64,000 bases of DNA from Myxococcota bacterium (GTDB lineage: Bacteria; Myxococcota_A; Polyangia; Nannocystales; Nannocystaceae), in assembly GCA_039028615.1 (NCBI GenBank), contig JBCCHT010000054.1, positions 20,696-84,695 on the forward strand, in the 5' to 3' direction. Shown piece by piece: positions 22,572 to 59,901 of this stretch. Under the pieces are notes generated by a model, which saw only the letters and a program-made list of their open reading frames with translations, searched no databases and was not told the origin of the DNA. A program made the position numbers and the translations under genes. Position 1 is the stretch's first letter, and every line of letters begins with the position of its first letter.

Positions 22572-24641
22572 GTGCACCGAGTCATCCCGTTGACCGCTCG
22601 GCCCCAGCTCCATCCTCGCGCCCGACGGTGCATCGTCTTGCGCGGTGCCAGGTCGGACACGAAACAGGCGGCCGAAGCCGTGCTTGCCGACCTCGATCCC
22701 GCCCGCGTCGTGTGGATTGGCCTCAACGACGAGAGTGCCCCTGCGCCGACCCACGAGCCCCGCCGCGTTCGCACGCTGCTCGGCCAGTCCTTCGATGCCG
22801 TGGTGCTGGATGGACACGACGGCCTGGACCCCGACGTGCTCGGCCAGTGCCAGGGCTTGGTGTGGGGCGGCGGCGGGCTCGTGCTGCGCCTGCCTCCCGC
22901 CACCGAGCTCCCCCGACCACAGACCCGCGCCCACCTGGCCGCTCACCCCTACCGAGCCGCGGACGTCGGCGTTCGGTTTCATCATCTCGTCGAGCGAGCC
23001 CTGCAGCGAGCCCCCACGGCCGAAGTCGTCACCGTACCGTCCTCACCCCCGCCCGAGCCCTTGGGCCCTCCACCGCGGCACATCGAAGGCACCGACGATC
23101 AGCGTCGCGTCGTCGATGCCCTGCACCACGCCTGGTCGTCCCCCGAGCCCACCCGCACCGTAGTGCTGGCCGACCGTGGCCGCGGCAAGTCCAGCGCCCT
23201 GGGACTCGCCCTCGCCAGCCTCGCCGACTACCCCCAGCGCACCATCGCCGTCACCGCAGCCCACCCCGACGCCGCGGCCGAAGTCTTCCGCTTCGCCCCC
23301 GACACCCACGCCCAGTTCGTCCCTCTGTCCAAACTCGTCGGTGGCGACGTCTCCCCCGATCTCATCGTGGTGGACGAGGCCGCGCAGCTCCCCGTCCCCA
23401 TGCTGCGGCGCCTGGTCGAAGTGCACCCGCGAGCCCACCTCGCCTTTGCCACCACCACCCACGGCTACGAAGGCACTGGCCGCGGCTTCGTGCTCCGCTT
23501 CCTGACCTGGCTCGAGACCCGCGAGCCCCCCGTCCAACGCCTCTCGCTCCGCACCCCCATTCGCTGGAGCGACGACGACCCCCTCGAGCGCCTCGTCTTC
23601 GACGCCCTGCTGCTCGATGCCGACCTCGCCCCCTTGCCCGCCGACCTGCTCCGGGCCCCCGACGCCGAGCTACGAACCGAACGACTCGACCGCAACGCCC
23701 TGCTCACCGACGAACCGAGCCTCCGCGAACTCTTCGGCCTCCTCGTCCACGCCCACTATCGAACCACCCCCACCGACCTCCACCGCCTGCTCGACGCCCC
23801 CAACCTCGCCGTGCACGTCGTGCGCTGGCGCGACCACATCGTCGCCGCCACCATCGTCGCCGAAGAGGGCGCCCTGTCCCCCGCGCAATGCCAATCCATG
23901 GCCCGCGGCCAGATCCGCATCCGGGCCCACGCCTTGCCCGACGCCCTCGTCGCCCACCTCGGCCACCCCGAAGCCGGCGAGCTGCCCATGCTCCGCAGCG
24001 TCCGCATCGCCACCCACCCCAAGCTACGACGCCAGCGACTCGCCACCCGCCTCGTCGAGCACGTCCACGCCCAGGCCACCCCCGCCCTGTTCGGCACCCT
24101 CTTCGGCGCCACCCCCTCGCTGCTCGCCTTCCGCCGCTCGCTCGGCTACCGACTCGTCCGCATCAGCGCCTCCCGAGGCGCCCGAACCGGCGAGCCCTCC
24201 GTCCTCATGCTCCGCCCCACCACCCCCCGAGCCGAGGCCCTCGTAAACACCCTCCGAGCCGAGCTCGCCCGCGACCTCCCCCGCCAGCTCGAGCTCATGC
24301 AAGCCGACCGAGAAACCCTCCTCGACCCCGCCCTCATCACCGCCCTCCACCACGACCTCCCCACCCCCGCCCCCTTGTCCCCCCAACAATGCGATGCCCT
24401 CGTCCGCACCTACGCCCCCGGCCCCCGCACCTTCGAATCCATCGCCCTCGCCCTCCAACAGTTCATCAAAGCCAACCCCCACCGCCTCACCCGCCTCCCC
24501 CCCTCCGACCAAGCCCTCATCCAATCCCGAGTCCTCGCCGCCCAAAGCTGGCACCACGCCACCCAATCCGCCGCCCTCCCCAGCATCCCCGCCGCCATGC
24601 GAGCCCTCCGCCGAGCCACCCGCCACCTCCTCGACCCCTAG
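22572..24641 (+). CDS. tmcA: tRNA(Met) cytidine acetyltransferase TmcA
   Basis: ADRGRGKSSALG, VVDEAAQLP, TTHGYEGTGRGF, PIRWSDDDPLE, LVHAHYRTTPTDL, GNAT RSVRIATHP. Confidence 0.9.
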   Translation: MHRVIPLTARPQLHPRARRCIVLRGARSDTKQAAEAVLADLDPARVVWIGLNDESAPAPTHEPRRVRTLLGQSFDAVVLDGHDGLDPDVLGQCQGLVWGGGGLVLRLPPATELPRPQTRAHLAAHPYRAADVGVRFHHLVERALQRAPTAEVVTVPSSPPPEPLGPPPRHIEGTDDQRRVVDALHHAWSSPEPTRTVVLADRGRGKSSALGLALASLADYPQRTIAVTAAHPDAAAEVFRFAPDTHAQFVPLSKLVGGDVSPDLIVVDEAAQLPVPMLRRLVEVHPRAHLAFATTTHGYEGTGRGFVLRFLTWLETREPPVQRLSLRTPIRWSDDDPLERLVFDALLLDADLAPLPADLLRAPDAELRTERLDRNALLTDEPSLRELFGLLVHAHYRTTPTDLHRLLDAPNLAVHVVRWRDHIVAATIVAEEGALSPAQCQSMARGQIRIRAHALPDALVAHLGHPEAGELPMLRSVRIATHPKLRRQRLATRLVEHVHAQATPALFGTLFGATPSLLAFRRSLGYRLVRISASRGARTGEPSVLMLRPTTPRAEALVNTLRAELARDLPRQLELMQADRETLLDPALITALHHDLPTPAPLSPQQCDALVRTYAPGPRTFESIALALQQFIKANPHRLTRLPPSDQALIQSRVLAAQSWHHATQSAALPSIPAAMRALRRATRHLLDP

Positions 24642-24760
24642 GATCCCCTCCCCACAACGCCCAACCCAAGAGCGCCCACAAAAAACGGAGCTCCAACTCT
24701 CCCGTTAGCAACCCCCGGCAAACCTCAACCGAAAACGCCTGCCCGCAGCTCCCCCCATTG

Positions 24761-25148
24761 CCCTTCCCCAGATCGGACGGGCCCGCGCAGCACGGCAGGG
24801 GCCCACTCGCGCGCAGCGGCGACTAATAGCCCCTACAAGCACCCAGCTCCAGCATCGCCGACGAGCACGAGTGGGAAGGAGGCCGAGCGTCAGCAGGCGC
24901 CCGTCCGTCCCCGCCCGAAGCTCATACAACCTCTCGACCCAGAGCCCACAACCAAAACCGCCCGCCCGCAGCTCCCCCCACTGCCCTTCCCCAGATCGGA
25001 CGGGCCCGCGCAGCACGGCAGGGGCCCACTCGCGCGCAGCGGCGACTATGAGCCCCTACAAGCACCCAGCTACAACATCGCCGACGAGCACGAGTGGGAA
25101 GGAGGCCGAGCGTCAGCAGGCGCCCGTCCGTCCCCGCCCGAAGCTCAT
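24761..25148 (-). repeat. Hairpin-element array A: two 165-bp cores (24761-24925, 24984-25148), period 223 bp
   Basis: Near-identical direct repeats cccttccccagatcggacgggccc...cgcccgaagctcat. Nested inverted repeats pair best on the minus (G-rich) strand. Confidence 0.95.
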
Positions 25149-25307
25149 ACAACCTCTCGACCCAGAGCCCACAACCTAATGCACCACCCACCCAAAGCTC
25201 ATAACCCAAACGACGAAACCATCTCCCCGAGAACCCCACCCAACCAAAAGAGAAGCCGACCGCCCAAAGACGCCCGGCCCCCTTTCAGTCAACCCCGAGC
25301 CCCGCCC

Positions 25308-30491: not shown

Positions 30492-30545
30492 GCGTCCGTC
30501 GCTTCCGCTGGCAATTGGCCACGGGACGGTGCACCATCGAAACCT

Positions 30546-31960
30546 ATGTTGCTTAGATTAGGATGGGTTGGATGCGCGCTGGCCATGGCCGGCTGCAACG
30601 CGACGGACCCGTGTGGGCCGGGGGGCATCGCGTCCTCGACGACGTGGGCGAGGGGCGCGTCACCGTCCATGTCGATCGCTTCGACGACCACGCGCTCGTC
30701 GAGCTGACCCACCACGACGACGAGGGACCGCAGACATGGTCGGCCTTCATGACCGCGACCTGCGGCAGCGAGCCGATCGAGCTCGTCGCCCCCACCGATC
30801 GGCACACCCAAGTTCGCATGATCGAGCAATGGGTGACCGTGCTCGACAAAGAGGACGATCGCATCGAGGTGGTCACCGACTTCGGCGCGGGCCCACGCCA
30901 CGAGATTGCCACCGAGGTGATCGGCTGCCCGATCCCGCTTCACGATGGCATGGCCTTCGAGCGCAGCGACGGCACGGTGTGGTTTCACCCCGCGCCCGGC
31001 GATCCGACGGCCACGCCCGAGCCGCTCCTCGAGGGCTCGTACGTCGCCGAGACCGCCGGATTCACCGACCTCGATGCCTGCCAGCGCCTCAGCTCCGACA
31101 TCGCTCGCGACGGGGAAAGCAATGGTCTGCTCGTGCTCACCGCCGAGCGCTCGATCGTCCGCGTCTCGCCGGACGAGCCCGGCCCCACGCCCGTCCTCGC
31201 TGGCCCCGTGAGGTCGTTCGAGGTGCTCTCCAACCCTCGCTACATCGCCTGGCGGCGGGAGGCCGATGACCATCGCTTGATCCATGACCGCGACACGGGC
31301 TTCGACCTCGACCTCGGGCAGGAAATCCACCCCTCGGGAGCCCGCGGGAGGTTCACCAGCCTCCCCGGCGAACGCTGGGTGACGTACTACCCACCCTATC
31401 ACAACGCCGGCCATGTCGACACGGTGCTGATCGACCTCGAGAGCGTCGACCTAGAGCACGACCAACTCCCGAGTGTCGGTCTCGCCGCTCAATTCCATGG
31501 TTCGCTGACGCCGACGCGCCTGATGATCTCCCAGTGGGGCCAGGCCGCCATCTACGACACCGAGTCGAACGAAGAGCAGTGGCTCGACATGCCGCCGCCG
31601 GGCACCGGGCGCACCGAGGCGGGCTGGGTCGGGCACGAGTTCGATTTGTGGTCGGAAACGGTGACGGTGCACCTGTTACCGAGCGACGGTGGGCCCGTCG
31701 AGATCTTGGGGGAGGACCTGGACTTCCGCTTCAGCGTCACCGACCACGCAACCCTCGTCGGGCACGCGATCGCCGACGATGACCCACACGGGCCGCTGAT
31801 GCTCCACCCGCGAAACGGCGCGCCCACGGTCATCGCCGAGCGCGTGGTCGACTACCAGCTCCTGCGCAAGTCGGACACGCCGAGCGGTGAACACGAAGAG
31901 CTATTCTACGTGATGAGCGAGGGCGAACGCGCCGGGCTTTGGCGCTACGAGCTACCTTAG
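30546..31960 (+). pseudogene. Lipoprotein paralog 1 of a tandem triplet, frameshifted after the lipobox
   Basis: ATG at 30546 encodes MLLRLGWVGCALAMAGCNATDPC, matching paralog 2. The body (HRVLDDVGEG...) is in another frame; the shift lies at the G6 run 30620-30625. Confidence 0.8.
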
Positions 31961-32000
31961 CGCTGGCAATTGGCCACCGGACGGTGCACCATCGAAGGAT

Positions 32001-33416
32001 ATGTTGCTTAGATTAAGTTGGATTGGTTGCGCGCTGGCATTGGCCGGCTGCAACACGACACCGCCCTGTGAACAGGTGCTCCCCGATCGCGTGCTCGAAG
32101 ACGTCGGCGAAGGGCTGACCGGCTTCCATGTCGATCGCCTCGAAGGCCGCGCGCTCGTCGAGCTCACGCATCGCGTCGGTATCGACCCGCCGACCTGGTC
32201 GGCCTTCATGACCAACAGCTGCGGCGGCGAGACCATCGAGGTGGTGGCCGCCACCGATCGAGACACGGAGGTCCGCATGGTCGGGCCGTGGGTGACCGTG
32301 CTCGACGAGCAGGACAAGCGCATCGAGATCGTCACCGACTTCGGCGCGGGACCCCGCCACGAGCTCGGGACCGGGGTCATCGGCTGCCCGATCCCGATCG
32401 CCGACGGGCTGGCCTTCGAGCGGAACGACGGCACGGTGTGGTTTCAGCCCAACCCGTCCGATCCCGGCTCCGCGCCCCAGCTGCTCCTGGAGGGGTCGGC
32501 GGTCAGCGATCCCGACGGCTCCACCGGCCTCGACGGCTGCCCTTTCCACGACGCGGACCTCTTTCGCGACGGGGACAGCGATGGCCTGCTCGTGCTGACC
32601 GACGAAGGCTCGATCGTCCGCGTCTCGCCCGACGGCGCCCCCGAGCCGGTCGTCGAAGGGCCCGTCCAATCGTTCGAGGCGCTGTCCAACCCGCGCTACG
32701 TCGCCTGGCTTCGAGATGGCGACCACCACCGCTTGATCCGCGACCGCGACACGGGCTTCGATCGCGACCTTTGGCGAGAAATCGACCCCGAGTGGGGCTC
32801 CGGGCGGTTCACCAGCCTCCCGGGCGACCGCTGGGTGACCTTCCACGGACCCTTTCACAACCCCAGTCACATCAACACGGTGCTCATCGATCTCGAGAAC
32901 GTCGACCTCGAGAACGACCGCCTGAAAACCTTCAACCACGCGGTCGACTTTCACGGCTCGCTGAGCCCGACGCAGCTGGTGATCTCGCTGTGGAGCGAGA
33001 CCGGCATCTACGACACCGAGACCAAGCAGACCCAGTGGTTCGACATGGTGCCGCCCGAGCACGGGCGCGTGGAGGCGGGCTGGGTCGCCAGCGACGTGAG
33101 CCCCTACGAGCAGGTGTTCACGATGCTGCTGCTGCCCAGCGACGGCGGCCCGGTGGAGGTCTTGGGTGAAGACCTGGGTCGCCGCTTCGAAGTCACCGAC
33201 GATGGGACCCTCATCCACCACGAGACCACGGACACGGACCCTCACCCGCCGCTGACCCTCCGGCCGCGGCAGGGCGAGCCGGGAGTGCTCGCCGAGGACG
33301 TGGTCCAGTTCCAGCTGCTCCGCACCGCCGATACGCCGAGTGGAGAGCACGAAGAACTCTTCTACGCGATCACCGAGGGTGAAGACGCCGGGCTGTGGCG
33401 CCACGAGCTGCCGTAG
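32001..33416 (+). CDS. Lipoprotein paralog 2, probable beta-propeller
   Basis: Lipobox LAGC; highly similar to 30546-31960; ends GLWRHELP. Confidence 0.8.
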   Translation: MLLRLSWIGCALALAGCNTTPPCEQVLPDRVLEDVGEGLTGFHVDRLEGRALVELTHRVGIDPPTWSAFMTNSCGGETIEVVAATDRDTEVRMVGPWVTVLDEQDKRIEIVTDFGAGPRHELGTGVIGCPIPIADGLAFERNDGTVWFQPNPSDPGSAPQLLLEGSAVSDPDGSTGLDGCPFHDADLFRDGDSDGLLVLTDEGSIVRVSPDGAPEPVVEGPVQSFEALSNPRYVAWLRDGDHHRLIRDRDTGFDRDLWREIDPEWGSGRFTSLPGDRWVTFHGPFHNPSHINTVLIDLENVDLENDRLKTFNHAVDFHGSLSPTQLVISLWSETGIYDTETKQTQWFDMVPPEHGRVEAGWVASDVSPYEQVFTMLLLPSDGGPVEVLGEDLGRRFEVTDDGTLIHHETTDTDPHPPLTLRPRQGEPGVLAEDVVQFQLLRTADTPSGEHEELFYAITEGEDAGLWRHELP

Positions 33417-33426
33417 GACGAGAACG

Positions 33427-34851
33427 ATGCAGCGCCTCAGCCCCCATGGCATGGCCTGGCTCGGGCTCGCTTCGGTCCTGTGCATGACAGCCTCGACCGG
33501 CTGTCGCGAGCCCGTGTGCGGACAGCGAATTCCCGTGCGCATCGTCGAGGACCCGGGCGGACGGGTCTCCGACCTTCGCGTCGATCGATTCGGAGATCAG
33601 GTACTCGCCGAGTTTTCAGCCTACGACGGGGAACGAAGCCGCCGGTCGGCGGTTGTGACCGACGTCTGTGGTGGACCGCCCGTGCAGCTGTTCGCCCCGG
33701 TGGAGGCCGAGTCGCAGGCCCGCCTCGTCGACGGCCACGTGCTCGTGCTCGACCAGCCCTCACGGCGCATCGAGTTCGTCGCCGACGCGGGCCTCGGCGA
33801 GCGACACGAGGTGTTCACCGACGTGACCGGCTGCATCGCTCCGGTCGCGGGGGGCCTGGCCGCGGAGCGTGTTGACGGCACGGTGTGGTTTCACCCCGAT
33901 CCCTCCGACCCCGACGCTCAACCGCTGAGGATCTTCGCGGAGGCCATGCCCGATGCGGACGAGACCCTGGCGGACCTCGAGCCCTGCCAAAGCTCGGGGG
34001 TCGTAGCCGATGGCAACGGCGTCATCGTCCTGGCCGCGGATGGCTCCGTCGTTCACGTCTCGGTGCACGACCGCTCACGCCACACGCTGATCGAGGGACC
34101 CGTCGACTCGTTCGATGTGCTGTCCAACCCGCGCTTCATCGCCTGGCTCCGCTCCGAGGACGGCGACCGGCTGATTCGCGACCGACAGACCGGGGACGAC
34201 CGCCGACTGGGCCGACAGATCGACCCCTCGCAGGGCGACGGGCACTTCTTCCACTTCCCCAACGACCGCTGGGTGTGCTTCGTGGCGCGGGCGCACACGG
34301 AATACGACACCGATACTCGATGCGTGGATCTACAGACCAATGAGCTGGCGTCCTACCGCTTCGCCACGCACCCCTTCTACGGGTCTCTGAACGCCAACGT
34401 GCTCCTGTTCGGTGGTGGCGCGGGGCCGATCCGCTGGAACCGAGTCACCGACGACGACGTCACCCGGCTCAACTTCGACCCGCTGCCTCATACCTTCGGG
34501 CGTGCCCATGACGGCTTGCTCGGTCGGTCCCGCGACCCCGCCACCGACGAGCGGATGCTGACCCTGATGCCCACCGACGGCGGACCCATCCGGGTGCTGT
34601 CGCGAGAACCGGCCACGACATTTCGCCGCACTCGCAACGACACGATCATCAGCGTCGTCCGCAATGACGAGCCCGGCTCGGACGGAACGCTGATGCTCCA
34701 GACTCCGTCGGGCGAACGGCGACCGCTGGCCGAGCACGTGGAGCCGTACCTCTCCGTGCCCGGCTACCAGACCCCGGACGAAATCGACGAGCTGCTGTAT
34801 GCCGTCACCGAGGGTGACGACGCCGGGATCTGGCGCTACGTCCTGCCCTGA
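33427..34851 (+). CDS. Lipoprotein paralog 3, more diverged
   Basis: STGC lipobox-like; shared motifs DGTVWFHP, LSNPR(F/Y)IAW, GIWRYVLP. Confidence 0.8.
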   Translation: MQRLSPHGMAWLGLASVLCMTASTGCREPVCGQRIPVRIVEDPGGRVSDLRVDRFGDQVLAEFSAYDGERSRRSAVVTDVCGGPPVQLFAPVEAESQARLVDGHVLVLDQPSRRIEFVADAGLGERHEVFTDVTGCIAPVAGGLAAERVDGTVWFHPDPSDPDAQPLRIFAEAMPDADETLADLEPCQSSGVVADGNGVIVLAADGSVVHVSVHDRSRHTLIEGPVDSFDVLSNPRFIAWLRSEDGDRLIRDRQTGDDRRLGRQIDPSQGDGHFFHFPNDRWVCFVARAHTEYDTDTRCVDLQTNELASYRFATHPFYGSLNANVLLFGGGAGPIRWNRVTDDDVTRLNFDPLPHTFGRAHDGLLGRSRDPATDERMLTLMPTDGGPIRVLSREPATTFRRTRNDTIISVVRNDEPGSDGTLMLQTPSGERRPLAEHVEPYLSVPGYQTPDEIDELLYAVTEGDDAGIWRYVLP

Positions 34852-50829: not shown

Positions 50830-51447
50830 GTGAGCACCGACCTCGAGCTGCTCGAGGCCTGGAAGACGGGCGATCGAAAGGCGGGCAGCGAGCTGTTCGA
50901 GCGCCACTTCGACAGCATCTGCCGGTTCTTCGCCAACAAGGTACAGCACGACGTCGACGATCTCGTGCAGCGGACCTTCATCGCGTGCGTCGAGGGCAAG
51001 GAACGATTCCGCGGGCAGTCGAGCTTTCGGACCTACCTGTTCGGCGTCGCCCACAACGTGCTGCGCTCCCACCTGAGAAAGCGGCGGCGCGAGGGCGAGC
51101 GCTTCGATTTCGGCGTCACCTCGGTCTTCGACCTCGGCCTGTCGCCCACCACGCTCATCGCCCAGCGCAAGGAACAGCTGCTCATCCTCCAGGCACTGCG
51201 GCGGATCCCCCTCGACCACCAGATCGTGCTCGAGCTTTATTACTGGGAGAACATGATCGCCAAGGATCTCGGCGAAGTGCTGCAGATCCCCGAGGGCACC
51301 GTGCGTGGTCGCATCCGTCGCGCCAAGCAGCTGCTCGAAGAGCAGCTCGCCGAGCTCGCCGAGACCGACGACCTCGAGAACACGATGAGCAACCTCGACA
51401 GCTGGGCGCGGTCGCTCCGGGCCAAGATCCTGCCCGACAAGACGTAG
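50830..51447 (+). CDS. ECF sigma-70 factor
   Basis: DDLVQRTF, FRGQSSFRTYLFGVAHN, IPEGTVRGRIRRAK; divergent from the kinase gene. GTG start inferred. Confidence 0.9.
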   Translation: MSTDLELLEAWKTGDRKAGSELFERHFDSICRFFANKVQHDVDDLVQRTFIACVEGKERFRGQSSFRTYLFGVAHNVLRSHLRKRRREGERFDFGVTSVFDLGLSPTTLIAQRKEQLLILQALRRIPLDHQIVLELYYWENMIAKDLGEVLQIPEGTVRGRIRRAKQLLEEQLAELAETDDLENTMSNLDSWARSLRAKILPDKT

Positions 51448-51739: not shown

Positions 51740-52921
51740 ATGGAAGAGCAAGACAATCCAGAGACAGCGCCGAGCATTCTGCAATTCCCGGGCAAGACGG
51801 TCGTGCCGCCTCCGCCTGAATTCGGCACCGTACTCGACGCTCCACCGCCGCGTCCCACCCCTCAGCCAACGCCCCAGGCGGAACCCTCGCGAGGGACGAG
51901 CCCGTGGATCTACGGCGGCTTGGTGTTCGCAATCGTAGCGGGCGGAATTGGGTTCGTGCTCGGCGGTCTGGGCGGCGATGACGAAGGCCAGGCATCGAAG
52001 CAGGCCGCGGATGCGAGCGCAGCGCCCAAGGCTTCCACGCAAGCCCCGGCCAGCAACGCGGGCGATGACGGTGCGGCCAAGGTCGCCGCCGCTCCGCCCG
52101 CAAAGGAGTCACCGTGCCCCGAAGGCATGGTGAAGATCGACGGCGGCAAGTTCTTCATGGGGACCGATCGTGATGCCGGGATCTTGCGGATGGCTCGTCC
52201 CGCTCACCAGGTCGAGGTGGGGCCCTACTGCATGGACATCTACGAGGTGCGGGTCGACGACTATCGCAGCTGCTCCGACAAGGGCGAGTGCAAGCGGGCG
52301 TTTCGCGAGAGCAAGTGGCCCGGTTCCGACGAGAGCGAGGTCGCGTGGAACGACCTGTGCAACGAGTCGTACGACGATCGCGGTCAGCATCCCGTCAACT
52401 GCGTCACCTGGGAGCAGTCGAAGCACTACTGCGAGCAACGAGGGGCCCGGCTGCCCACCGAGAGCGAGTGGGAGTATGCGGCGCGAGGGTCCGATGGGCG
52501 CGTCTACCCGTGGGGTGACGAGGCTCCAGATCAGCGGCACATGAACGGGTGCGGCACGGAGTGTCGGGACTGGCGGGCAGACAAAGAGCTGTCGGCGAAC
52601 CCGGCGGTGTTGCACGAGACGAACGATCGGTATCCGGGCACGGCTCCGGTGGGGAGCTTTCCCGCTGGGAAGACCCAGTGGGGGCTGCACGACATTGCGG
52701 GCAATGTGTTCGAGTGGACGGCGGATGCGTTCGAGCCCTATCCGGGGGCGGAGAAGGAGCCCGAGAAGGATGGGGGGACGCCGGCGCGGCGGGTGATTCG
52801 TGGGGGGGCGTTCAATAGCTTCTTTGCGGATTTTGCGGATCCGGCGTTGCGGTTTCCTCAGGTGGAGACGGCGCATACGCATGGGATTGGGTTTCGGTGT
52901 GCGGCGGATGTGCGGGAGTGA
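51740..52921 (+). CDS. Membrane-anchored FGE-sulfatase (SUMF1) domain protein
   Basis: CPEGMVKIDGGKFFMG, HPVNCVTW, RLPTESEWEYAARG, GLHDIAGNVFEW, RVIRGG, GFRCA. Confidence 0.9.
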   Translation: MEEQDNPETAPSILQFPGKTVVPPPPEFGTVLDAPPPRPTPQPTPQAEPSRGTSPWIYGGLVFAIVAGGIGFVLGGLGGDDEGQASKQAADASAAPKASTQAPASNAGDDGAAKVAAAPPAKESPCPEGMVKIDGGKFFMGTDRDAGILRMARPAHQVEVGPYCMDIYEVRVDDYRSCSDKGECKRAFRESKWPGSDESEVAWNDLCNESYDDRGQHPVNCVTWEQSKHYCEQRGARLPTESEWEYAARGSDGRVYPWGDEAPDQRHMNGCGTECRDWRADKELSANPAVLHETNDRYPGTAPVGSFPAGKTQWGLHDIAGNVFEWTADAFEPYPGAEKEPEKDGGTPARRVIRGGAFNSFFADFADPALRFPQVETAHTHGIGFRCAADVRE

Positions 52922-53035
52922 GGGCTTTGAGCGGCCTCTGTGTTGGTGAGAGTTTCGGGCGGAGATGAGCGGGTGCCTGCTGGGAGCGGGCGCCTGCTGG
53001 GCCCGGTGGTCAGTGGCTCGTTTGGGCTGGTGGGT

Positions 53036-53683
53036 ATGAGCTTTGGGCGGAGACGGACGGGCGCCTGCTGACGCTCGGCCTCCTTCCCACTCGTGCTCGT
53101 CGGCGATGCCTTACCTGGGTGCTTGTAGAAACTCTTAGTCGCCGCTGCGCGCGAGTGGGCCCCTGCCGTGCTGCGCGGGCCCGTCCGAGCTGGGGAATGG
53201 CACCGGTTGGAGCGGTGAGCGGCAGGAGAAACTCTGGTTGGTTCGGGGCTGGAGCTGTGGTTCGACGAAGCGGCGTTTGAGCTTTGGGCGGAGACGGACG
53301 GGCGCCTGCTGACGCTCGGCCTCCTTCCCACTCGTGCTCGTCGGCGATGCCTTAGCTGGGTGCTTGTAGAAACTCGTAGTCGCCGCTGCGCGCGAGTGGG
53401 CCCCTGCCGTGCTGCGCGGGCCCGTCCGAGCTGGGGAATGGCAATGTTTGGAGCGGTGAGCCGCGAGAAGTGTCGGTGCTCGATCGGTTGATTGCGGGTG
53501 TTCGTCGGGGTGGCGAGTATGAGCTTTGGGCGGAGACGGACGGGCGCCTGCTGACGCTCGGCCCCCTTCCCACTCGTGCTCGTCGGCGATGTTGCAGCTG
53601 AGTGCTTGTAGAAACTCATCGTCGCCGCTGCGCGCGAGTGGGCCCCTGCCGTGCTGCGCGGGCCCGTCCGAGCTGGGGAACGG
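53036..53683 (+). repeat. Hairpin-element array B: three 165-bp cores (53036-53200, 53277-53441, 53519-53683), period 241-242 bp
   Basis: Reverse complement of the array A/C unit. Each core is followed by tggagcggtgagc; decayed partial copy at ~52948-52982. Confidence 0.95.
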
Positions 53684-53930
53684 TCTTGGGTGGAGCGGTG
53701 AGCGGGCTGGGTCGGGGTGGTGGCGGAGGTTGTTCTGCGCCTCGGCGTGGGTGTACCGAACGAATTAAAGTACCTAGGTAACATTAGGTTTGCAAATGGG
53801 GGTCGGCGCGGGCGGGGGTGGGCGAGGGGTGGACTTGCTCATCTGAGAAACCATGATACCTGTGTACCAAGATAACAACGGGATGAGCGGGCGTGGTTTC
53901 GGCGGCTCATCGAGATGACGGACGAAAACG

Positions 53931-54644
53931 GTGAAAAAGATCGGGTTTTTCGAGCTGGTGGTGTCCGGCGTGGGCGCTTCGTTACTGATGGGCGGGTGTG
54001 GCACTACGCATGCCGAGTCTCATTCCGAACGAACGCCTCATGCTGGCCAGCGTGGGGTGCATGGCGAGCGGGGGGCGGGTCACTCGGCGCCTGCGGGTCA
54101 TGGCGGGCATGGTGGGCACGAGGGGCATGGGGATGCTCATGCGGTGGTCGGTGAGCCTCGGGTGGATGCGGAGGGGCGTTTTCCGACGGTGGGGTTCGAG
54201 CGGCGGGTGGAGCTGGAGTTGCCGTTTGCGGCGACGCAGGTGTGTCCGCTGTTCGAGCCGAGCGGGCGCAATCTGCTGTACGAGTGGTGGGAGCCGACGG
54301 TGCTTCGTCCGGCGCGAGGGCAAACGCTCGAGGGGCTGGTCACGGTGTCCACGCTGCACGAGTCGCACGAGGTCTTTCTGGTCGTGACCGAGCACGAGCC
54401 GGAGCGTGGGCACCTGCAGTACATGGTGCTGTGGGACGACTTCGAGCTTCAGCGCGTGGACATCACGTGCGTCGAGGGGGCCTCGAGCGCGTCGACGAAG
54501 GTCGAGTGGCTCGAGCGCAACGCGGGGCTGCACGACGAGGGGGTGTCGATGGTCTCGTCGTTCGTCATGGGTGGCGCGCTCGATCGGGTGGTCGAGCGCT
54601 ACGGGGACAACGTCGAAAAGACGCTGCGAACGGCGGATCGATGA
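53931..54644 (+). CDS. His-rich putative lipoprotein with SRPBCC/START-like domain
   Basis: MGGC lipobox-like, His/Gly-rich segment, then VCPLFEP...W.P...EHEPERGHLQY pattern. Confidence 0.65.
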   Translation: MKKIGFFELVVSGVGASLLMGGCGTTHAESHSERTPHAGQRGVHGERGAGHSAPAGHGGHGGHEGHGDAHAVVGEPRVDAEGRFPTVGFERRVELELPFAATQVCPLFEPSGRNLLYEWWEPTVLRPARGQTLEGLVTVSTLHESHEVFLVVTEHEPERGHLQYMVLWDDFELQRVDITCVEGASSASTKVEWLERNAGLHDEGVSMVSSFVMGGALDRVVERYGDNVEKTLRTADR

Positions 54645-55567
54645 AGAGGGCGCTGTTTACGACCTTGGACACGCACCCGAGCGTGCAGACGAGCGTCGCG
54701 GCTCGCTACGACGCGTTCGTTCGCCACGTCACCGTGGCGGACGCGCTGGGGTTCGATGCGTTCTGGGTGGGCGAGCACCACGGCACGAACGTCGGGCGGA
54801 TTCCGAACCCGGCGGTGCTGCTGGCCGCGGCGGCAGCGAAGACCCGGAGGATTCGGCTCGGCCCCGCGGTGTCGGTGCTGCCACTTCGGCCGCCACGGCT
54901 CGTGGCCGAGGACTACGCGATGCTGGATGCGCTGTCGGGCGGGCGTCTCGACATGGGCGTCGGCGTCGGATCGCAGCGGGTCGAGTTCGAGCACCTCGGG
55001 GTGGACTTCGATCAGCGCCGCGCGTTGTTCGATGCGCATCTCGACGAGCTCGAGCGGGCATGGGAGACCGATTCGGGGCCGGACAAGCCGCCGCTCTACG
55101 TTGCGACGCTGAGTGAGGAAGGGGCGTTTCGGGTAGGCAAGGCGGGGCGATCGATGTTGACGCTGGTCAGCCCCGCGGTACGGGACCTCGACGAGATCGA
55201 GCGGCGGCTTCGTGCGCACGCGCGAGGCCTCGAGGAACACGGCGGCGCGGCGAATGCCGACGCGGTGGTGATGGTCTTCGCCTGCGCGGCGGCCAACGAA
55301 CGAGAAGCGCGACTGCGGGCGAGCCGATCGCTCGGCAACTTCATCGAGCTGTCCTCGGGCACCCGGCCCGACGATCCCGTCGCGCTGTGCGACGCGATGC
55401 GGCAACGAGGCACGGGCTTGTTCGCATCGCGGGAGCAGATGACGGCCCGGGTCGATGCGCTCGTCCGGCGCGGGTTCGAAAACCTGTGTTTTTTCGTCGA
55501 TTTCGGGACGATGGAGGCGAACGCGGTCGAAGAGACCATGCGCAGCCTGGCTCCGTCCTGTCTGTGA
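54641..55567 (+). CDS. Luciferase-like (LLM) flavin-dependent monooxygenase
   Basis: ADALGFDAFWVGEHH, RIRLGPAVSVLPL, VAEDYAMLDALSGGRLDMGVG; ATGA overlap. Confidence 0.9.
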   Translation: MKRALFTTLDTHPSVQTSVAARYDAFVRHVTVADALGFDAFWVGEHHGTNVGRIPNPAVLLAAAAAKTRRIRLGPAVSVLPLRPPRLVAEDYAMLDALSGGRLDMGVGVGSQRVEFEHLGVDFDQRRALFDAHLDELERAWETDSGPDKPPLYVATLSEEGAFRVGKAGRSMLTLVSPAVRDLDEIERRLRAHARGLEEHGGAANADAVVMVFACAAANEREARLRASRSLGNFIELSSGTRPDDPVALCDAMRQRGTGLFASREQMTARVDALVRRGFENLCFFVDFGTMEANAVEETMRSLAPSCL

Positions 55568-55598: not shown

Positions 55599-55940
55599 AT
55601 GACGACGAAGAAGAAGACCAAGAAGAAGGCGCGGAAGAAGACCAAGGCGAGCACGAGCGCGCGGTCCTCCGCCGCCCCGCCACAGCGCGAATACGTCGTC
55701 GAGCGCATCCAGACCGGCGTGCGGATGGAGAAGCGCCTCATCAAGGTGCTCAAGGCGCTGGCCGAGTATCACGACCTTTCCTTGGGCGACTTGCTCGAAG
55801 GCATCGTGTTGCACGCCTTCGAGGCGAAGTCTCCGTTCGGTCCCGACACCATCGCTCGCATCGAGCAACTCAAGAGCGTCTACGGGCTCGACCTCGACGC
55901 CGCCGCCAGCCATCGCCTGCACGAAAAGGACTCCGGCTGA
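55599..55940 (+). CDS. Small basic putative ribbon-helix-helix DNA-binding protein
   Basis: Lys-rich tail then RIQTGVRMEKRLIKVLKALAEYHDLSLGDLLEGIV (strand-helix-helix). Confidence 0.7.
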   Translation: MTTKKKTKKKARKKTKASTSARSSAAPPQREYVVERIQTGVRMEKRLIKVLKALAEYHDLSLGDLLEGIVLHAFEAKSPFGPDTIARIEQLKSVYGLDLDAAASHRLHEKDSG

Positions 55941-55979: not shown

Positions 55980-56708
55980 TCATAGACGACGAGGCGGTCG
56001 CTCGCGGGCGACCGAGATCGTGTCGCGAAGGCCGGCCGGGGGCAGATCGTCGGGCCCGAACTCGAGCGAGAGCTCCTGCCCGGGCTCGACCGTGCGCCGG
56101 GTCCAGATCCCCGCTCCGGTCAGGAAATCGAAGCGCTCCGACTCGGAAGAGCCCGCGGGAAAGTTGTACGCGAAGCCGGACGGCGACTCGATCTTGATCA
56201 AGGCCGTCGCCGCCTCCTCGGGGACCGTCGTCTGCAGGGTGCGTCGCCCGTCGCTGGACTCGACCAGAGCCTCGTCCACGTCGGCGTCGTCGATGAACCC
56301 GCCCTTGCCGTCCTTGTACGAGACCCACGCCCGAACCTCGCGCCCGGGCTCGATCCCGTGCAGATCGGTCCCCAGACGGCCATCGATGACCACTGGTCGA
56401 TCCCCCACGATGAACGCCCCCAGCTTCGTCGCATGGTCCACCCCGGCCAAGCGCATCCAGTACCAACCGGGCTTCAGCTCCGACAGTGCGAAGCACCCGT
56501 CGTCATCGAGGTGCACGATGTGATCGCCGCCACGGCGGTGCCCGATCCACACCACCCCCGCCTTCATCGGGTGCCCGTCGTGCCCACGAATGCACCCCTT
56601 GATCGCCGCCCCCGCACTCCGTCGCCCCGCCGCGTGCACCGAGCGATCCACCGTCCCTGCCATGAGCAGAGCACCACCGACGACCATTGTCCTGCGTCCA
56701 AGCGCCAT
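55980..56708 (-). CDS. Secreted protein with carboxypeptidase-regulatory-like domain
   Basis: GRRTMVVGG Tat-like signal; IKGCIRGHDGHP...DDDGCFALSELKPGWY. Confidence 0.6.
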   Translation of the reverse strand: MALGRRTMVVGGALLMAGTVDRSVHAAGRRSAGAAIKGCIRGHDGHPMKAGVVWIGHRRGGDHIVHLDDDGCFALSELKPGWYWMRLAGVDHATKLGAFIVGDRPVVIDGRLGTDLHGIEPGREVRAWVSYKDGKGGFIDDADVDEALVESSDGRRTLQTTVPEEAATALIKIESPSGFAYNFPAGSSESERFDFLTGAGIWTRRTVEPGQELSLEFGPDDLPPAGLRDTISVARERPPRRL

Positions 56709-56862
56709 GGCCCCCGGTACGATCAATTCGGCCGATGTCTTTCACCCACTCGTGTCTTTGTCCTAGCCCCGACACCGATTGCAGCCCCGACATCCCATTT
56801 GGCTCCTGAATCGCGAACCGCCCCGCACGGCACTGCGACGGCTCGTTCACAGCCCCACCCAT

Positions 56863-57780
56863 TCAGACGCGGGGCTCGAGCTCCCGCAGGTACTCCGCCT
56901 TGTCGAACACATAAGGCCCCAGCCCGTAGATCCAGTGACGGTGAAACTGCTCGAAGTCCGACCACACCACCACCTCGTCGAGCACCGTGATCCGCACCAT
57001 CAGAAACCAACACTCCACGATCCCGCAGGTGCACCCCAGCACCGTCGCCCTCCCGCGCTGCGGGTCATCCGGCGCGAGCACGAACCCCTTCGCCGCCGTA
57101 TCCCACGGCTCGTCCAGCAGCTCGCGACGAGGCAACCGCAGCCAGTCCGAGCTCATGCTCATGTAGTCCCCCGCAAAGTCACCGATGTCCTCCCGCGCCT
57201 CCCCATCCGCCACCCGAAGCTCGATCTCCCGATCCACGAAGGGCCGCTCCACCCGACGAACCAACTCGACGAGCGCCTCCCCATTGATCGAGATCTCGCA
57301 AGGCACATTCCCTTCCCCCCCCGGCCACGACTCACCCCCAGGGTTGTCCGTCAGCCTCAACCGATCCCTGCGCGAAGCCGGCCGCCCCCGCGCCAACGCT
57401 TCGATCTCCGCCCGCGTGGGCGCAGCCAACCCCCGACGCACCGCCACCGGCCCCTCCACCCCCGGACCATCCACCCGACCCGACATCAACCAAGGCTTCC
57501 CCGGCCGCCCCGGCACCCACCCCTTCTCCAGCCCACGCCGAATCCACCCCGCCACCGCCCCGGGCGTCACCGCCCTCCCCCTCAACCGAGCCTCATTCGA
57601 CGGATGATGCTGCCCCAGCTCCACCAACAAACTGGCTCCCCCACCATCCTCGACCGCCACCGCCAACACCAACCGAGTCCGCCCACTCCTCTGCTCCACC
57701 GTAGGCCGACGACGAACCCGCCACCGATACCCCACCCCATCGACCTCGATCCGCCGCGACCCCTTCGCCGGCAAACTCAC
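56863..57780 (-). CDS. Hypothetical two-domain protein
   Basis: N-domain KGSRRIEVDGVGYRWRVRRRPT...GW.P; C-domain LGCTCGIVECW...VVWSDF. GTG start inferred. Confidence 0.7.
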   Translation of the reverse strand: MSLPAKGSRRIEVDGVGYRWRVRRRPTVEQRSGRTRLVLAVAVEDGGGASLLVELGQHHPSNEARLRGRAVTPGAVAGWIRRGLEKGWVPGRPGKPWLMSGRVDGPGVEGPVAVRRGLAAPTRAEIEALARGRPASRRDRLRLTDNPGGESWPGGEGNVPCEISINGEALVELVRRVERPFVDREIELRVADGEAREDIGDFAGDYMSMSSDWLRLPRRELLDEPWDTAAKGFVLAPDDPQRGRATVLGCTCGIVECWFLMVRITVLDEVVVWSDFEQFHRHWIYGLGPYVFDKAEYLRELEPRV

Positions 57781-57938
57781 CGCCCCCACCCCGCCTTCCC
57801 ACAACCCAACGCCGTCATCCTCCCTCAGCATCCGCGCCCCCCGACCACCCCGTCAACCATCCGCCCCCACCCCACGAGGAGCCCTCAAACCTCCAGTCTC
57901 TCAACCCACCGCCGACCCCCTCACCACTCCACCCAAGC

Positions 57939-58344
57939 CCCTTCCCCAGATCGAACAAGCCCGCGCAACACGGCAGAGCCCCACTCGCCCGCAGCGGCGA
58001 CGACCTGCTTCTACAAGCACCCAGCTAACACATCGCCGACGAGCACGAGTGGGAAGGAGGCCGAGCGTCAGCAGGCGCCCGTCCGCCTCCGCCCGAAGCT
58101 CATACTCGCTGCCCGAGGAGCACCCGCAGTCAACCGAACGAGCAAAACCAGGCCCCGCGTCTCACCGCTCCACCCAAGACCCTTCCCCAACACGGACGGG
58201 CCCGCGCAGCACGGCAGAGTCCCACTCGCCCGCAGCGGCGACGACCTGCTTCTACAAGCACCCAGCTAATACATCGCCGACGAGCACGAGTGGGAAGGAG
58301 GCCGAGCGTCAGCAGGCGCCCGTCCGTCCCCGCCCGAAGCTCAT
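57939..58344 (-). repeat. Hairpin-element array C: two 165-bp cores (57939-58103, 58180-58344), period 241 bp
   Basis: Same unit and orientation as array A; the linker is homologous to the second linker of array B. Confidence 0.95.
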
Positions 58345-58403
58345 ACCGCGACCCACCGCCCGTAACTCATACCGACACCCACCGCCGAAAACCCAAGGGC
58401 CCT

Positions 58404-59126
58404 CTACTCAATCCCCAACGCCGCCAAATCCGCCTCCGCCTGCGGCTGCCACCCCTGATTCGCCCGCGGACTCGCCGGACTCGGATGCAACATCGCCCCC
58501 ACCGCAATCGACTCATCCAAAACCCCCCGAGCCCTCTTCGCCGCAAACGCCCCAATCCCCACCACGATCCGCGGCTCCAACACCTCCATCGTCTCCCGCA
58601 ACGCCCGATTACAAGCCTCGAACAACGGCTCCCTCTCCGCCTTCGGCAGCTTGTCCGGCGTCCTGTTCCGCCCGCTCTCCTCGAGAAACGCCAGCGGACA
58701 ATAGTTCACGATGAAGAACCGCGAGAAGAAGCTCCGCGCCGTCCCGTAACGACTCTTCGCCCACCCCCAAAGCCGCGTCCCGCTGACCTCCGACCGCGTG
58801 CACGCAAACCCATCGATCGGCCGCTTCGGATGCTCCGGCTTCGGCTTCCCCACCTTCCCTTCGATCTTCACGAAGTCCCGCGCATACGAGACCTCGCCGA
58901 ATGGAATCCCCGTCTGCGCCATCCCGAAGGGCCCCGGGTTCATCCCCAGCAAGATCACCCGCTTCTTCTTCTTGCCGTACCGCTCGAGGTACTGCTCGTG
59001 TGTATTCCGGGCGTAACGCAGCGGGTTGTAGACGTGCGTGACGGGAGCATCGAAGTGCAGCGCATCGACGGCTCGGCACAGGCGGCGGTTGATCCGGACC
59101 AGGTCCACGGCTGCGGACCTTAGCAA
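58404..59126 (-). CDS. SMUG1-family (family 3) uracil-DNA glycosylase
   Basis: VYNPLRYA, GMNPGPFGMAQTGIPFG, RSEVSGTRLW, NYCPL, HPSPASP. Confidence 0.92.
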   Translation of the reverse strand: MLRSAAVDLVRINRRLCRAVDALHFDAPVTHVYNPLRYARNTHEQYLERYGKKKKRVILLGMNPGPFGMAQTGIPFGEVSYARDFVKIEGKVGKPKPEHPKRPIDGFACTRSEVSGTRLWGWAKSRYGTARSFFSRFFIVNYCPLAFLEESGRNRTPDKLPKAEREPLFEACNRALRETMEVLEPRIVVGIGAFAAKRARGVLDESIAVGAMLHPSPASPRANQGWQPQAEADLAALGIE

Positions 59127-59132
59127 ACGGGC

Positions 59133-59771
59133 TCAGCTGACGGAGCCGGGATCGGCGAGCAGCCCATCCCGCAGCGAGGCGGCCCAGGCATCGAGGTTGA
59201 CCAGGGTGCTCTCGAGCAGGTCCTTGTCCTCGATGAGCTTTTGCATCTGCTCTTCGAGGCGCTTTTTGGCCTTGCGAATGCGCGTACGCGCGGTGCCCTC
59301 GGGAACGTCGAGCACCCGACCGACCTCGGCCGCGGTGAGCTTCTCCCAGTAGTACAGCTCGAGCACGATCTGGTCGTCGAGCGGGATCCGCCGCAGGCCC
59401 TGCAGCAAGACGCGGTGCTCGTGGTGCTGCGCGACGATGACGCTGGGCGACGGCGCCAGGTCGTGCACCGAGGTCACCCCGAAGTCGATGCGGTTCCCGT
59501 GCCTCCGCTTGCTGCGGTAGTGCTTGCCCAGCACGTTGTGGGCGACCGCGAACAGGTACGTTCGGAAGCTGGCCTCGCCGCGGAAGCGATCTTTGGTCTC
59601 GACGCACGCGAGGAAGGTGCGCTGGATCAGATCGTCGATTCCGCGGTCGACCTTGTTGCGGAAGAACCGAGCGACGGCGTCGAAGTGGCGCTCGAAGAGC
59701 TGCTCGCCCGCGTGGCGATCACCACCCCGCCAGGCCTCCAAGAGCTCCAGGTCGTTGGTGGGGGCCGCCAT
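59133..59771 (-). CDS. ECF sigma-70 factor, paralog of 50830-51447
   Basis: DLELLEAW, DDLIQRTF, SFRTYLFAVAHN, LELYYWE, VPEGTARTRIRKAK. Confidence 0.9.
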   Translation of the reverse strand: MAAPTNDLELLEAWRGGDRHAGEQLFERHFDAVARFFRNKVDRGIDDLIQRTFLACVETKDRFRGEASFRTYLFAVAHNVLGKHYRSKRRHGNRIDFGVTSVHDLAPSPSVIVAQHHEHRVLLQGLRRIPLDDQIVLELYYWEKLTAAEVGRVLDVPEGTARTRIRKAKKRLEEQMQKLIEDKDLLESTLVNLDAWAASLRDGLLADPGSVS

Positions 59772-59901
59772 CGCGCGATCGCAGTGTACGCCCAGGTAGG
59801 GCTGCGCGCACGCGGGTGCGATGGCGCTCACCCACGCGCCCCGGGGCCGTAGCCCAAAGGTGCGCGGGAGGCCGAACCCTTCGGATCGCCGAGGCGACCG
59901 A

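Follow-up and report, generated by a model that had tools for sequence, protein, structure and literature searches.

Hairpin arrays with homology to IS1182 ends lie within strand-locked silent-site skews in a Myxococcota genome

The window, a 64,000-nucleotide stretch of a Myxococcota bacterium genome (GCA_039028615.1), carries three arrays, A, B and C, of tandem copies of F1, a covarying hairpin of ~135 nt (Table 1). Array B is inverted relative to arrays A and C. Arrays B and C bound a 4.2-kb spacer with cargo ORFs and lie between an FGE-sulfatase-domain gene and a gene of the uracil-DNA glycosylase (UDG) superfamily. Terminal inverted repeats were not present at the tips of A, B and C, the outer ends of which are degenerate; in the outer end of array B an intact one was looked for and none was seen. 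Gene calls came from a crude caller that missed TmcA, and the genes of the window were treated by hand. Together with two other hairpin families, F2 and F3, F1 makes up 135 copies at 101 loci of the genome. Both sides had changed in 14 of 36 F1 pairs, a degree of covariation matched by none of 500 shuffles; the stability of a single F1 fold was not above that of shuffles (z -0.05). Two T-G pairs were near-invariant (18/18 and 17/18), suggesting that the G/T strand is the favoured folding strand.

Table 1 Position and strand of genes, arrays and skewed regions in the window
Feature	Position	Strand	Remarks
TmcA gene	22572..24641	+	Downstream halo of A; strand opposite to element
Array A	24723..25168	-	Two tandem F1 units, isolated
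FGE-sulfatase-domain gene	51740..52921	+	PF03781; last ~150 codons recoded to G/T-ending (upstream halo of B)
Array B halo	52400..55500	+	G/T-rich
Array B outer end	52922..53033	+	Degenerate; partial duplications of hairpin 5' arm
Array B	53034..53706	+	Three tandem ~241-bp units, F1 hairpin core in each
F1 cores of array B	about 53054-53187, 53295-53428, 53537-53670	+	Fold and covariation
Cargo ORF	53931-54644	+	Without Pfam match; in downstream halo of B
Luciferase-like monooxygenase	54641-55567	+	In downstream halo of B
Further cargo ORF	55599-55940	+	
Further cargo ORF	55980-56726	-	
Array C halo	56300..58900	-	C/A-rich on + strand
Further cargo ORF	56863-57831	-	
Array C	57901..58364	-	Two tandem F1 units, converges on array B
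UDG superfamily gene	58404..59108	-	PF03167; upstream halo of C

A preliminary description of this DNA had proposed that the base skew inverts together with array B, and its base counts (30 G/9 C at 52861-52920, 31 G/15 C at 54061-54120) were exact. Indeed, the + strand was G/T-rich on both sides of the array. Measured as (G+T-A-C)/N on the element's strand, the 500-nt flanks showed values of 0.24 upstream and 0.24 downstream for B, 0.30 and 0.45 for C, and 0.34 and 0.46 for A, which were matched by at most 0.15% of 23,574 element-free 500-nt windows. We refer to these skewed flanks as halos. The codon switch noted towards the 3' end of the FGE gene was found as well: four-fold sites, C-rich earlier in the gene, read G16/T1/C0 over the last 34 codons, where two-fold Y sites gave T10/C1. 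The last ~175 codons of the UDG gene were similarly recoded (four-fold G78 C5 T5 A1), and the last 330 codons of TmcA gave C196 G14 A17 T0 at four-fold sites. The halo of array A took in ~2 kb of TmcA and ~0.7 kb of a DUF1554 gene. Around array C the + strand turned C-rich, as had been described, with the reversal near 55.6-56.2 kb marking the meeting point of the B and C halos. The expectation that skew extrema would coincide with the arrays held in part: local skew peaked at the array edges, but the turning points of the cumulative curve lay away from the arrays, one ~1.1 kb ahead of B, one halfway from B to C (55.6-56.2 kb) and one ~0.6 kb past C.

The orientation rule, drawn originally from three loci, extended to the whole genome. 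With the element read 5' to 3', its strand was enriched in G/T on the upstream side at 84 of the 90 measurable loci, and the downstream rule held at 57 of 84. Among the 90 strongest skew patches, 48 contained an element, and all 48 had one in the predicted orientation. Within 0-200 bp upstream, four-fold sites on the element strand comprised 0.22 C and 0.63 G (genome-wide 0.51 and 0.385), two-fold T rose to 0.51 (versus 0.16 genome-wide) and two-fold A fell to 0.07-0.10 (versus 0.16). Genes on the other strand near elements showed the mirror-image composition. The bias is synonymous, strand-locked and graded by distance. The predicted decay was observed, in lopsided form: the pooled kernel was 0.75 at -300 bp and 0.13 at -750 bp upstream, compared with 0.4 to +750 bp and 0.1 at +2 kb downstream, so that the halo faded over ~0.7 kb and ~2 kb, respectively. 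Scaling of the amplitude with copy number, also suggested earlier, failed (Spearman -0.04, p 0.73, 75 loci). Nearest-copy identity, a proxy for age, did not correlate with the halo, and no general 3'-end effect was found at 5,556 ordinary gene ends. As a side observation, the relation of the downstream tail to the replichore was suggestive (6 versus 8 loci, p 0.04); arrays A-C run opposite to it, so it was not used.

The halo resembles replication-associated leading-strand G/T skew in that C and A are depleted and G and T enriched on one strand, with a gradient over distance, a pattern also known from the asymmetry of the mitochondrial heavy strand. Strand-biased transitions are described for E. 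coli (10.1101/346874). Unlike replichore GC skew, the halo spans 0.6-2 kb, follows element orientation independently of replichore side and, at silent sites, exceeds the weak replichore signal of the genome (about +-0.07 at four-fold sites) about tenfold. Elements occur on both sides (46 versus 43) with an absolute upstream halo of about 0.5 either way, and halos of both signs occur on one replichore; the earlier argument against replichore skew therefore stands. We regard it as extremely unlikely that the halos are an artefact of the assembly, of amino-acid content or of the position on the replichore. The genome is a draft of 94 contigs with many elements at contig ends, but Logan contigs of the one run containing the stretch showed 0 differences in the flanks (the run may be the source sample, so this match argues only against an assembly artefact), and halos were present at F1 copies in two other species (G004 and G002). 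Amino-acid composition alone, which would have undermined the original claim, was contradicted by a control in which the last 150 codons of FGE had z = 11.3 and the first 240 had z = 1.4, with absolute z of 8.7-16.3 in four other flanking genes. Taken together, these data support the interpretation of the preliminary description; the IS1182 link, the convergent pairing and the halo asymmetry go beyond it.

Comparison with relatives indicated the direction of change. At the 70 four-fold sites where relatives have C, this genome has G at 56, T at 4, C at 9 and A at 1; 61 of 65 four-fold G sites remain G. Orthologues of FGE, UDG and TmcA without an element were unskewed at 13 of 14 loci; at the exception (L104) the contig breaks about 0.5 kb past the gene. 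This comparison bears on the quite improbable alternative of selection for unstructured flanks or insertion into already skewed sites. Sequence rich in G/T or C/A on one strand folds poorly, and in the halo G+C at four-fold sites was hardly altered and T/C shifted alike at two- and four-fold sites, which has the look of a fitness-type preference. However, the element-free orthologues lack the skew, intact IS ends with measurable flanks showed no halo, and silent-site selection reaching to 2 kb at about 100 loci would be hard to sustain.

The origin of the arrays was suggested by two metagenome loci (L111 and L113), where IS1182-family elements carry F1 directly inside their tips, next to a 445-aa IS1182 transposase (382 and 378 bits; cut-off 270). 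In L111, terminal repeats with flanking CTAG lie outside both hairpins, and a further element (G061) has terminal inverted repeats with CTAG at both ends. The array B unit scored 129 and 117 against the L111 ends (shuffle maxima 58 and 61), and on this homology the arrays can probably be classed as an IS1182-derived end remnant or MITE. Neighbouring elements up to 5 kb apart were convergent in 31 of 32 cases, in the same orientation as in L111, with both members from one family in 28 of the 31 pairs. CTAG was not found at B and C; 18 of 90 loci had it in the 250 nt upstream, where about 6 would be expected, and genes running into elements had a TAG stop in 32/64 cases versus 2047/6533. The likeness to the IS1182 family and its MITEs, e.g., IS1272, consists of F1 inside CTAG-flanked inverted tips in relatives, convergent ends, the TAG-stop excess and the tandem arrangement, since an end duplicated in tandem (25 bp) is described for IS1272. 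The arrays differ in that long (135-240 nt) covarying hairpins lie inside both ends and that this genome has kept the hairpin without the tips and the transposase; the available part of the IS1272 account does not mention flanking strand bias (PMC5678879). No report of IS1182 subterminal hairpins was found in the open literature.

An NF033551 DDE transposase was absent from the window and from 31 spacers, the L111 transposase had no match in this assembly (G000), and the sole IS1182 match in the assembly was at fragment level (C20; 83 bits, below the 270 cut-off). A cognate transposase was likewise not found in the run's contigs at 80% identity. A transposase nick would thus have to be historical. 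Homology of F2 to autonomous IS1182 ends was not found, and F2 and F3 have so far no tie to any transposase; an IS256 between an F2 pair in G004 had inserted secondarily into the hairpin. In genus g17, a 240-nt hairpin located at IS1182 ends showed no average halo (33 copies, mean about -0.03), no clear trend with age in a within-genome comparison (rho -0.10, p 0.57; -0.37, p 0.07 in three genomes), and no significant sequence likeness to F1. Related hairpins in Nannocystis-like genomes mostly lacked halos, and a 63%-identical IS1182 (G063) lacked such hairpins. The F1 pattern had 0 viral matches and none in 300 sampled other genomes of the phylum; in 43 metagenome stretches, 8 loci (7 places) were true F1 and the remainder chance matches. 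In one of five congeners (G001), the FGE and UDG stops lie 1 nt apart, representing a putative empty site, while in the other four these genes are not adjacent. The segment B-cargo-C therefore reads as inserted and end-bounded.

REP/RAYT systems, in which inverted repeats surround a variable core and the enzyme is a Y1 HUH TnpA-REP (PMC6006769), offered a further comparison. Two RAYT-like genes here have convergent short repeats and the same halo, amounting to 3 of the top 5 among the 5,556 gene ends, and 30 RAYT loci in relatives included a subset with halos (300-600 bp bin: 19/27 positive upstream, 18/27 negative downstream). In contrast, the hairpins F1-F3 are long and show no relation to the repeats beside RAYT genes, and G004 and G002 have F1 halos and no RAYT-profile match. 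RAYT was rejected as the F1 enzyme: the two RAYT-like genes are flanked by a different repeat, with no F1-F3 within 6 kb. A six-frame search of the genome yielded no further RAYT, and a RAYT-protein scan of its contigs gave one, spurious, locus. DUF559 (no link to elements) and GIY-YIG (three matches, none near a listed element) were also discarded as partners. Convergent skews occur without F1 at two RAYT loci and the parS cluster, so a roadblock of a more general kind may be the trigger. It is very unlikely that the hairpins are retron msd-like reverse-transcribed copies, as reported for Nannocystis exedens, with retro-copying marking the flanks. Titles of cited works point to msd-like repeats in N. 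exedens, and this genome encodes one retron-like RT; yet the RT region had no significant match to any hairpin family and no halo, and the hairpins lie inside DDE elements.

Another possibility, which we rate as improbable, is that the hairpin acts as RNA, its transcription forming an R-loop or priming a D-loop that displaces the G/T strand. The T-G pairs are equally compatible with RNA and DNA, of 83 upstream genes, 70 are directed towards the element, and the asymmetric downstream tail would suit a D-loop. Nevertheless, the halo sign follows the element in genes on either strand, e.g., TmcA, a sigma-70-like promoter is absent from 52.8-58.5 kb, tRNA/tmRNA genes (85, a proxy for strong transcription) have no halo, and an Rfam scan of the 64-kb window gave no match.

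The best reading, in which we have about even confidence, is an element-oriented local mutation footprint left by repeated single-strand exposure. The skew would represent a depletion of C, and to some extent of A, at silent sites on the hairpin-folding strand because that strand is likely often single-stranded near the element. A protein may recognise the folded hairpin or element end and nick the opposite (C/A) strand or stall the fork. DDE transposases nick the strand whose 3' end is at the tip, and in the elements here this is presumably the C/A strand. The gap would open ~0.6 kb outward and ~1-2 kb inward, leaving the G/T strand open to changes of the deamination type (C->T, A->G); the strong G+C pull of the genome would convert most new four-fold T to G. 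A toy model with C->T x5, A->G x2 and low C<->G exchange gave A.03, C.26-.28, G.56-.57 and T.13-.14, close to the observed A/C/G/T of.03/.22/.63/.12. Except with low C<->G exchange, a transition-only model yields less G than the strongest halos have, and direct C->G change is therefore possible. In this reading, B and C would mark both ends of a former IS or end-bounded cassette that inserted between the FGE and UDG stops and now holds unrelated cargo. The locus is known from one sample, and mutation is deduced here from composition rather than seen in progress.

A lasting nick at the element might instead misdirect mismatch repair or trigger error-prone resynthesis, with errors on the G/T strand being fixed (T for C, G for A, perhaps G for C). 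We consider this unlikely. The sign of the bias would be the same and MutL is encoded; C loss had log odds of -1.1 to -1.3 where the 5' base was G or C and was weaker, at -0.4 to -0.5, where it was A or T, context being a weak test as stationary composition includes back-mutation. In mismatch-repair-defective E. coli, C is reported to mutate faster after a 5' G, and mutations of A and C fall on the same strand, but the 12-fold 5'-NAC hotspot reported there was not seen in our A depletion (10.1101/346874), and 5' C behaves here as 5' G. Kataegis-like clusters at resected breaks in eukaryotes are strand-coordinated, with C loss on the exposed strand near a fixed site. Unlike these, C loss in the halo showed no TC preference, the sign is the same on both sides of a single element, and the halo is fixed over evolutionary time in bacterial genes.

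Strand asymmetry in bacteria is usually chromosome-scale. The asymmetry in this genome is short-range and steep and follows the remnant of a mobile element, stripping one base from housekeeping silent sites. No published report of an element-locked halo was found in the open literature; F1 inside IS1182 tips at the two metagenome loci and the apparent insertion of B-cargo-C are likewise new. If the halo is a single-strand footprint, transposon ends would be long-lived directional mutators, DNA-opening sites could be mapped from sequence alone, and the long hairpins in IS1182 ends may have an unrecognised function. Tentatively, an IS1182 subgroup may carry a folded single-strand end signal that loads a helicase, primase or nickase, and its orphan hairpins may have become fixed strand-specific mutators that recoded a few hundred host genes; with the footprint shared by RAYT and parS loci, silent-site skew might then map DNA opening and breakage in bacteria genome-wide.

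Array B, one of three tandem arrays (A–C) of a ~135-nt hairpin family (F1), proved to be the reverse complement of arrays A and C, as the preliminary description had claimed, and the base counts reported for its flanks (52861–52920 and 54061–54120) were exact on recount. G and T prevailed on the + strand between ~52.5 and 55.4 kb, C and A between 56.3 and 58.9 kb. The proposed skew flip between B and C is present, with its switch point midway between them. Across the six 500-nt flanks of A–C, skew scores were 0.24–0.46; of 23,574 windows free of elements, no more than 0.15% scored as high. The flanks showed no differences from Logan contigs of the sole run containing the stretch. Compared with the same protein recoded with genome-wide codon usage, the FGE-sulfatase-domain gene (FGE, upstream of B) gave z = 11.3 in its last 150 codons versus 1.4 in its first 240. 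Corresponding values were 13.5 for the uracil-DNA glycosylase superfamily gene (UDG, upstream of C), –11.8 for TmcA (downstream of A), and 8.7 and 16.3 for two cargo ORFs between B and C. Since the skewed parts (absolute z 8.7–16.3) lie far beyond their recoded counterparts, the skew is a synonymous effect that amino-acid content alone fails to explain. We term this silent-site G/T-richness of the element strand (reading the element 5′ to 3′) a halo. Two paralogous ECF sigma factor genes (~70–76% DNA identity) face each other, bracketing the FGE–B–cargo–C–UDG block. A coding repeat and a triplicated gene elsewhere in the window are unrelated to the skew.

Coordinates of arrays and associated features (window positions, or contig:positions in the draft genome unless a relative is named)
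Feature	Location	Remarks
Array A	24723–25168	opposite orientation to B
Array B	53034–53706	three ~241-bp units; opposite orientation to A, C
Array C	57901–58364	opposite orientation to B
ECF sigma factor genes	50830–51447; 59133–59774	
96-bp coding repeat	7398–8535	cysteine-rich, myxobacterial type
Triplicated ~1.45-kb gene	30506–34851	
Halo-like patches without known element (examples)	C30:65200–67200; C11:155200–157200; C28:50400–52000	
Two F3 5′ parts, fused head to head	C28:82970–83350	near-perfect palindrome
Convergent F1 pairs with single cargo genes	C18:62545–63822; C8:593–2234	
Retron-like RT (L002)	C16:159640–161500	456-aa frame; hairpin-rich upstream region
IS256-family element in F2 hairpin (L229, L225)	relative G004, C56:171188–173092	inserted within loop region
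IS256 fragment	C50:92335–92640	between an F1 pair
RAYT-like Y1 HUH genes (L001, L079)	C13:40455–41396; C8:231440–232339	66% identical; below NF047646 cut-off
parS cluster after rsmG (L078, L255)	C18:17000–20700	G/T-to-C/A flip; terminus-like, not origin-like

The whole genome (12.3-Mb draft, 94 contigs), for which named homologues indicate a myxobacterium of the Nannocystaceae group, contained 126 skewed patches, 65 of which had repeats in common that sorted into three hairpin families (F1–F3). Family seeds were taken from skewed patches, while further copies were gathered by BLAST irrespective of skew, giving 135 copies at 101 loci. The upstream flank was G/T-rich on the element strand at 84 of 90 measurable loci, extending well beyond three loci the orientation rule first drawn from them, and the downstream flank at 57 of 84. 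Neighbouring elements ≤5 kb apart converged in 31 of 32 cases, an arrangement that cancels many downstream halos. Among the 90 strongest patches, 48 held an element, always in the predicted orientation; the other 42, devoid of F1–F3, include rRNA-like regions, low-complexity genes and the parS cluster. Some element-free patches may be ghosts of lost elements. In the pooled fit, the upstream halo decayed with distance from 0.73–0.75 within 300 bp to 0.13 at 750 bp, then turned weakly negative (–0.05 to –0.13) out to 3–4 kb; the downstream halo stayed at 0.4 out to 750 bp and had dropped to 0.1 at 2 kb. The suggested scaling of amplitude with copy number was not observed (rho –0.04, 75 loci), and replichore side had no influence on the upstream halo. 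Neither 85 tRNA/tmRNA genes nor 5,556 ordinary gene ends showed a halo. The F3 palindrome has a one-sided halo. Each of the two tabulated F1 pairs encloses one cargo gene; by eye, one of these, a low-GC ORF, resembles a macro/TIR-domain gene and the other an endonuclease/exonuclease/phosphatase gene.

On the element strand, C fell from 0.51 to 0.22 and G rose from 0.385 to 0.63 at four-fold sites, while at two-fold sites T rose from 0.16 to 0.51 and A fell from 0.16 to 0.07–0.10, with mirror-image shifts in genes on the opposite strand. Comparison with 4–5 orthologues each of FGE, UDG and TmcA, 13 of 14 being unskewed, showed 70 conserved C sites to be 56 G, 4 T, 9 C and 1 A here, whereas 61 of 65 conserved G sites were still G; synonymous sites being near saturation, this indicates net direction rather than single steps. 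A simple equilibrium model with five-fold C→T and two-fold A→G yielded the average composition, provided that C↔G exchange was low; direct C→G change may contribute as well. Loss of C was weaker after 5′ A or T, which disfavours a TC-specific deaminase.

Around a single element, C and A were lost from the same strand in both flanks, regardless of host-gene or fork direction, so a strand-specific event at the element is needed. In the reading that we prefer, the G/T strand would be repeatedly exposed there, either because the C/A strand is nicked or because a protein-assisted stall occurs at the hairpin, and would then undergo deamination-type change; we infer every step of this and the following mechanisms and give this one about an even chance. 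Nick-misdirected repair or error-prone fill-in would produce a bias of the same sign, and in MMR-defective E. coli, too, A and C are lost together from one strand with a 5′-GC preference, but the NAC hotspot of that system is not seen in the halos (10.1101/346874), and we consider this explanation unlikely. RNA or an R-loop at the hairpin fits more poorly than strand exposure and appears improbable, selection or targeting, also a poorer fit, slightly more so, and retro-copying, again fitting less well, very improbable. Nannocystis exedens reportedly carries msd-like repeats; the retron-like RT found here, between ORFs that we take to be SWIM-like and WGR-like, is unrelated to F1–F3. F1 folds into a single long interrupted stem with covariation in 14 of 36 pairs (18 sequences; 0 of 500 shuffles as high); kinship among the sequences inflates such a count, and the structure itself was drawn from that alignment. 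Two near-invariant T–G pairs favour folding of the G/T strand. Folded on its own, one copy was no more stable than shuffles, indicating that shape and loop sequence, not stability, are conserved.

A metagenome pattern scan for F1 returned 43 stretches, 8 of them true F1 (7 places). At one locus (L111), a 445-aa IS1182 transposase lies between two convergent F1 copies, and terminal repeats flanked by CTAG occur 40–70 nt outside each hairpin; a second (L113) shares this left end and the transposase gene, and its sequence stops before the right end. In a relative (G061), a 64%-identical transposase carries at both ends a different 240-nt hairpin, which has core motifs in common with F1 without significant overall identity; another (G063) has a similar transposase but lacks such hairpins. 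In our genome the element tips are degenerate, TAG stops and CTAG are enriched beside elements, and neither the assembly nor the contigs of the run yielded a cognate transposase. In relative G001, where no F1–F3 was found, the FGE and UDG stop codons lie 1 nt apart; in our genome B, five cargo ORFs and C, 5.5 kb in all, separate them. From these sequence comparisons we read B and C as putative remnant IS1182-type ends; the B–cargo–C segment as such does not belong to IS1182. For IS1272, stem-loops as target and possible end duplication are described (PMC5678879). IS256 sequences also occur at F1 and F2 hairpins (Table). Within the open full-text literature covered, neither strand skew anchored to an element nor long subterminal hairpins of IS1182 came up. 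Here, halos and IS1182-type hairpins are joined within a single family. The skew around elements is real and, as far as we searched, without published explanation.

F1 halos were clear in G004, moderate in another relative (G002) and mixed in metagenome loci. In the genus with the 240-nt hairpin, 33 copies showed on average no halo and no clear age trend; carrying a hairpin within an IS1182 end is therefore not sufficient for a halo, and youth cannot explain halo-free intact ends. Two RAYT-like loci had strong convergent halos (neighbours including trpS) and short inward-facing repeats unrelated to F1–F3; of 30 RAYT loci examined in relatives, only a part have halos. Almost all of 16 genomes of the family (relatives L256–L270 among them) switch from G/T- to C/A-rich in the region after rsmG, which holds the parS cluster, with no hairpin detected; one metagenomic parS cluster (L117) contains an F1 pair. 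More than one process may lie behind such footprints.
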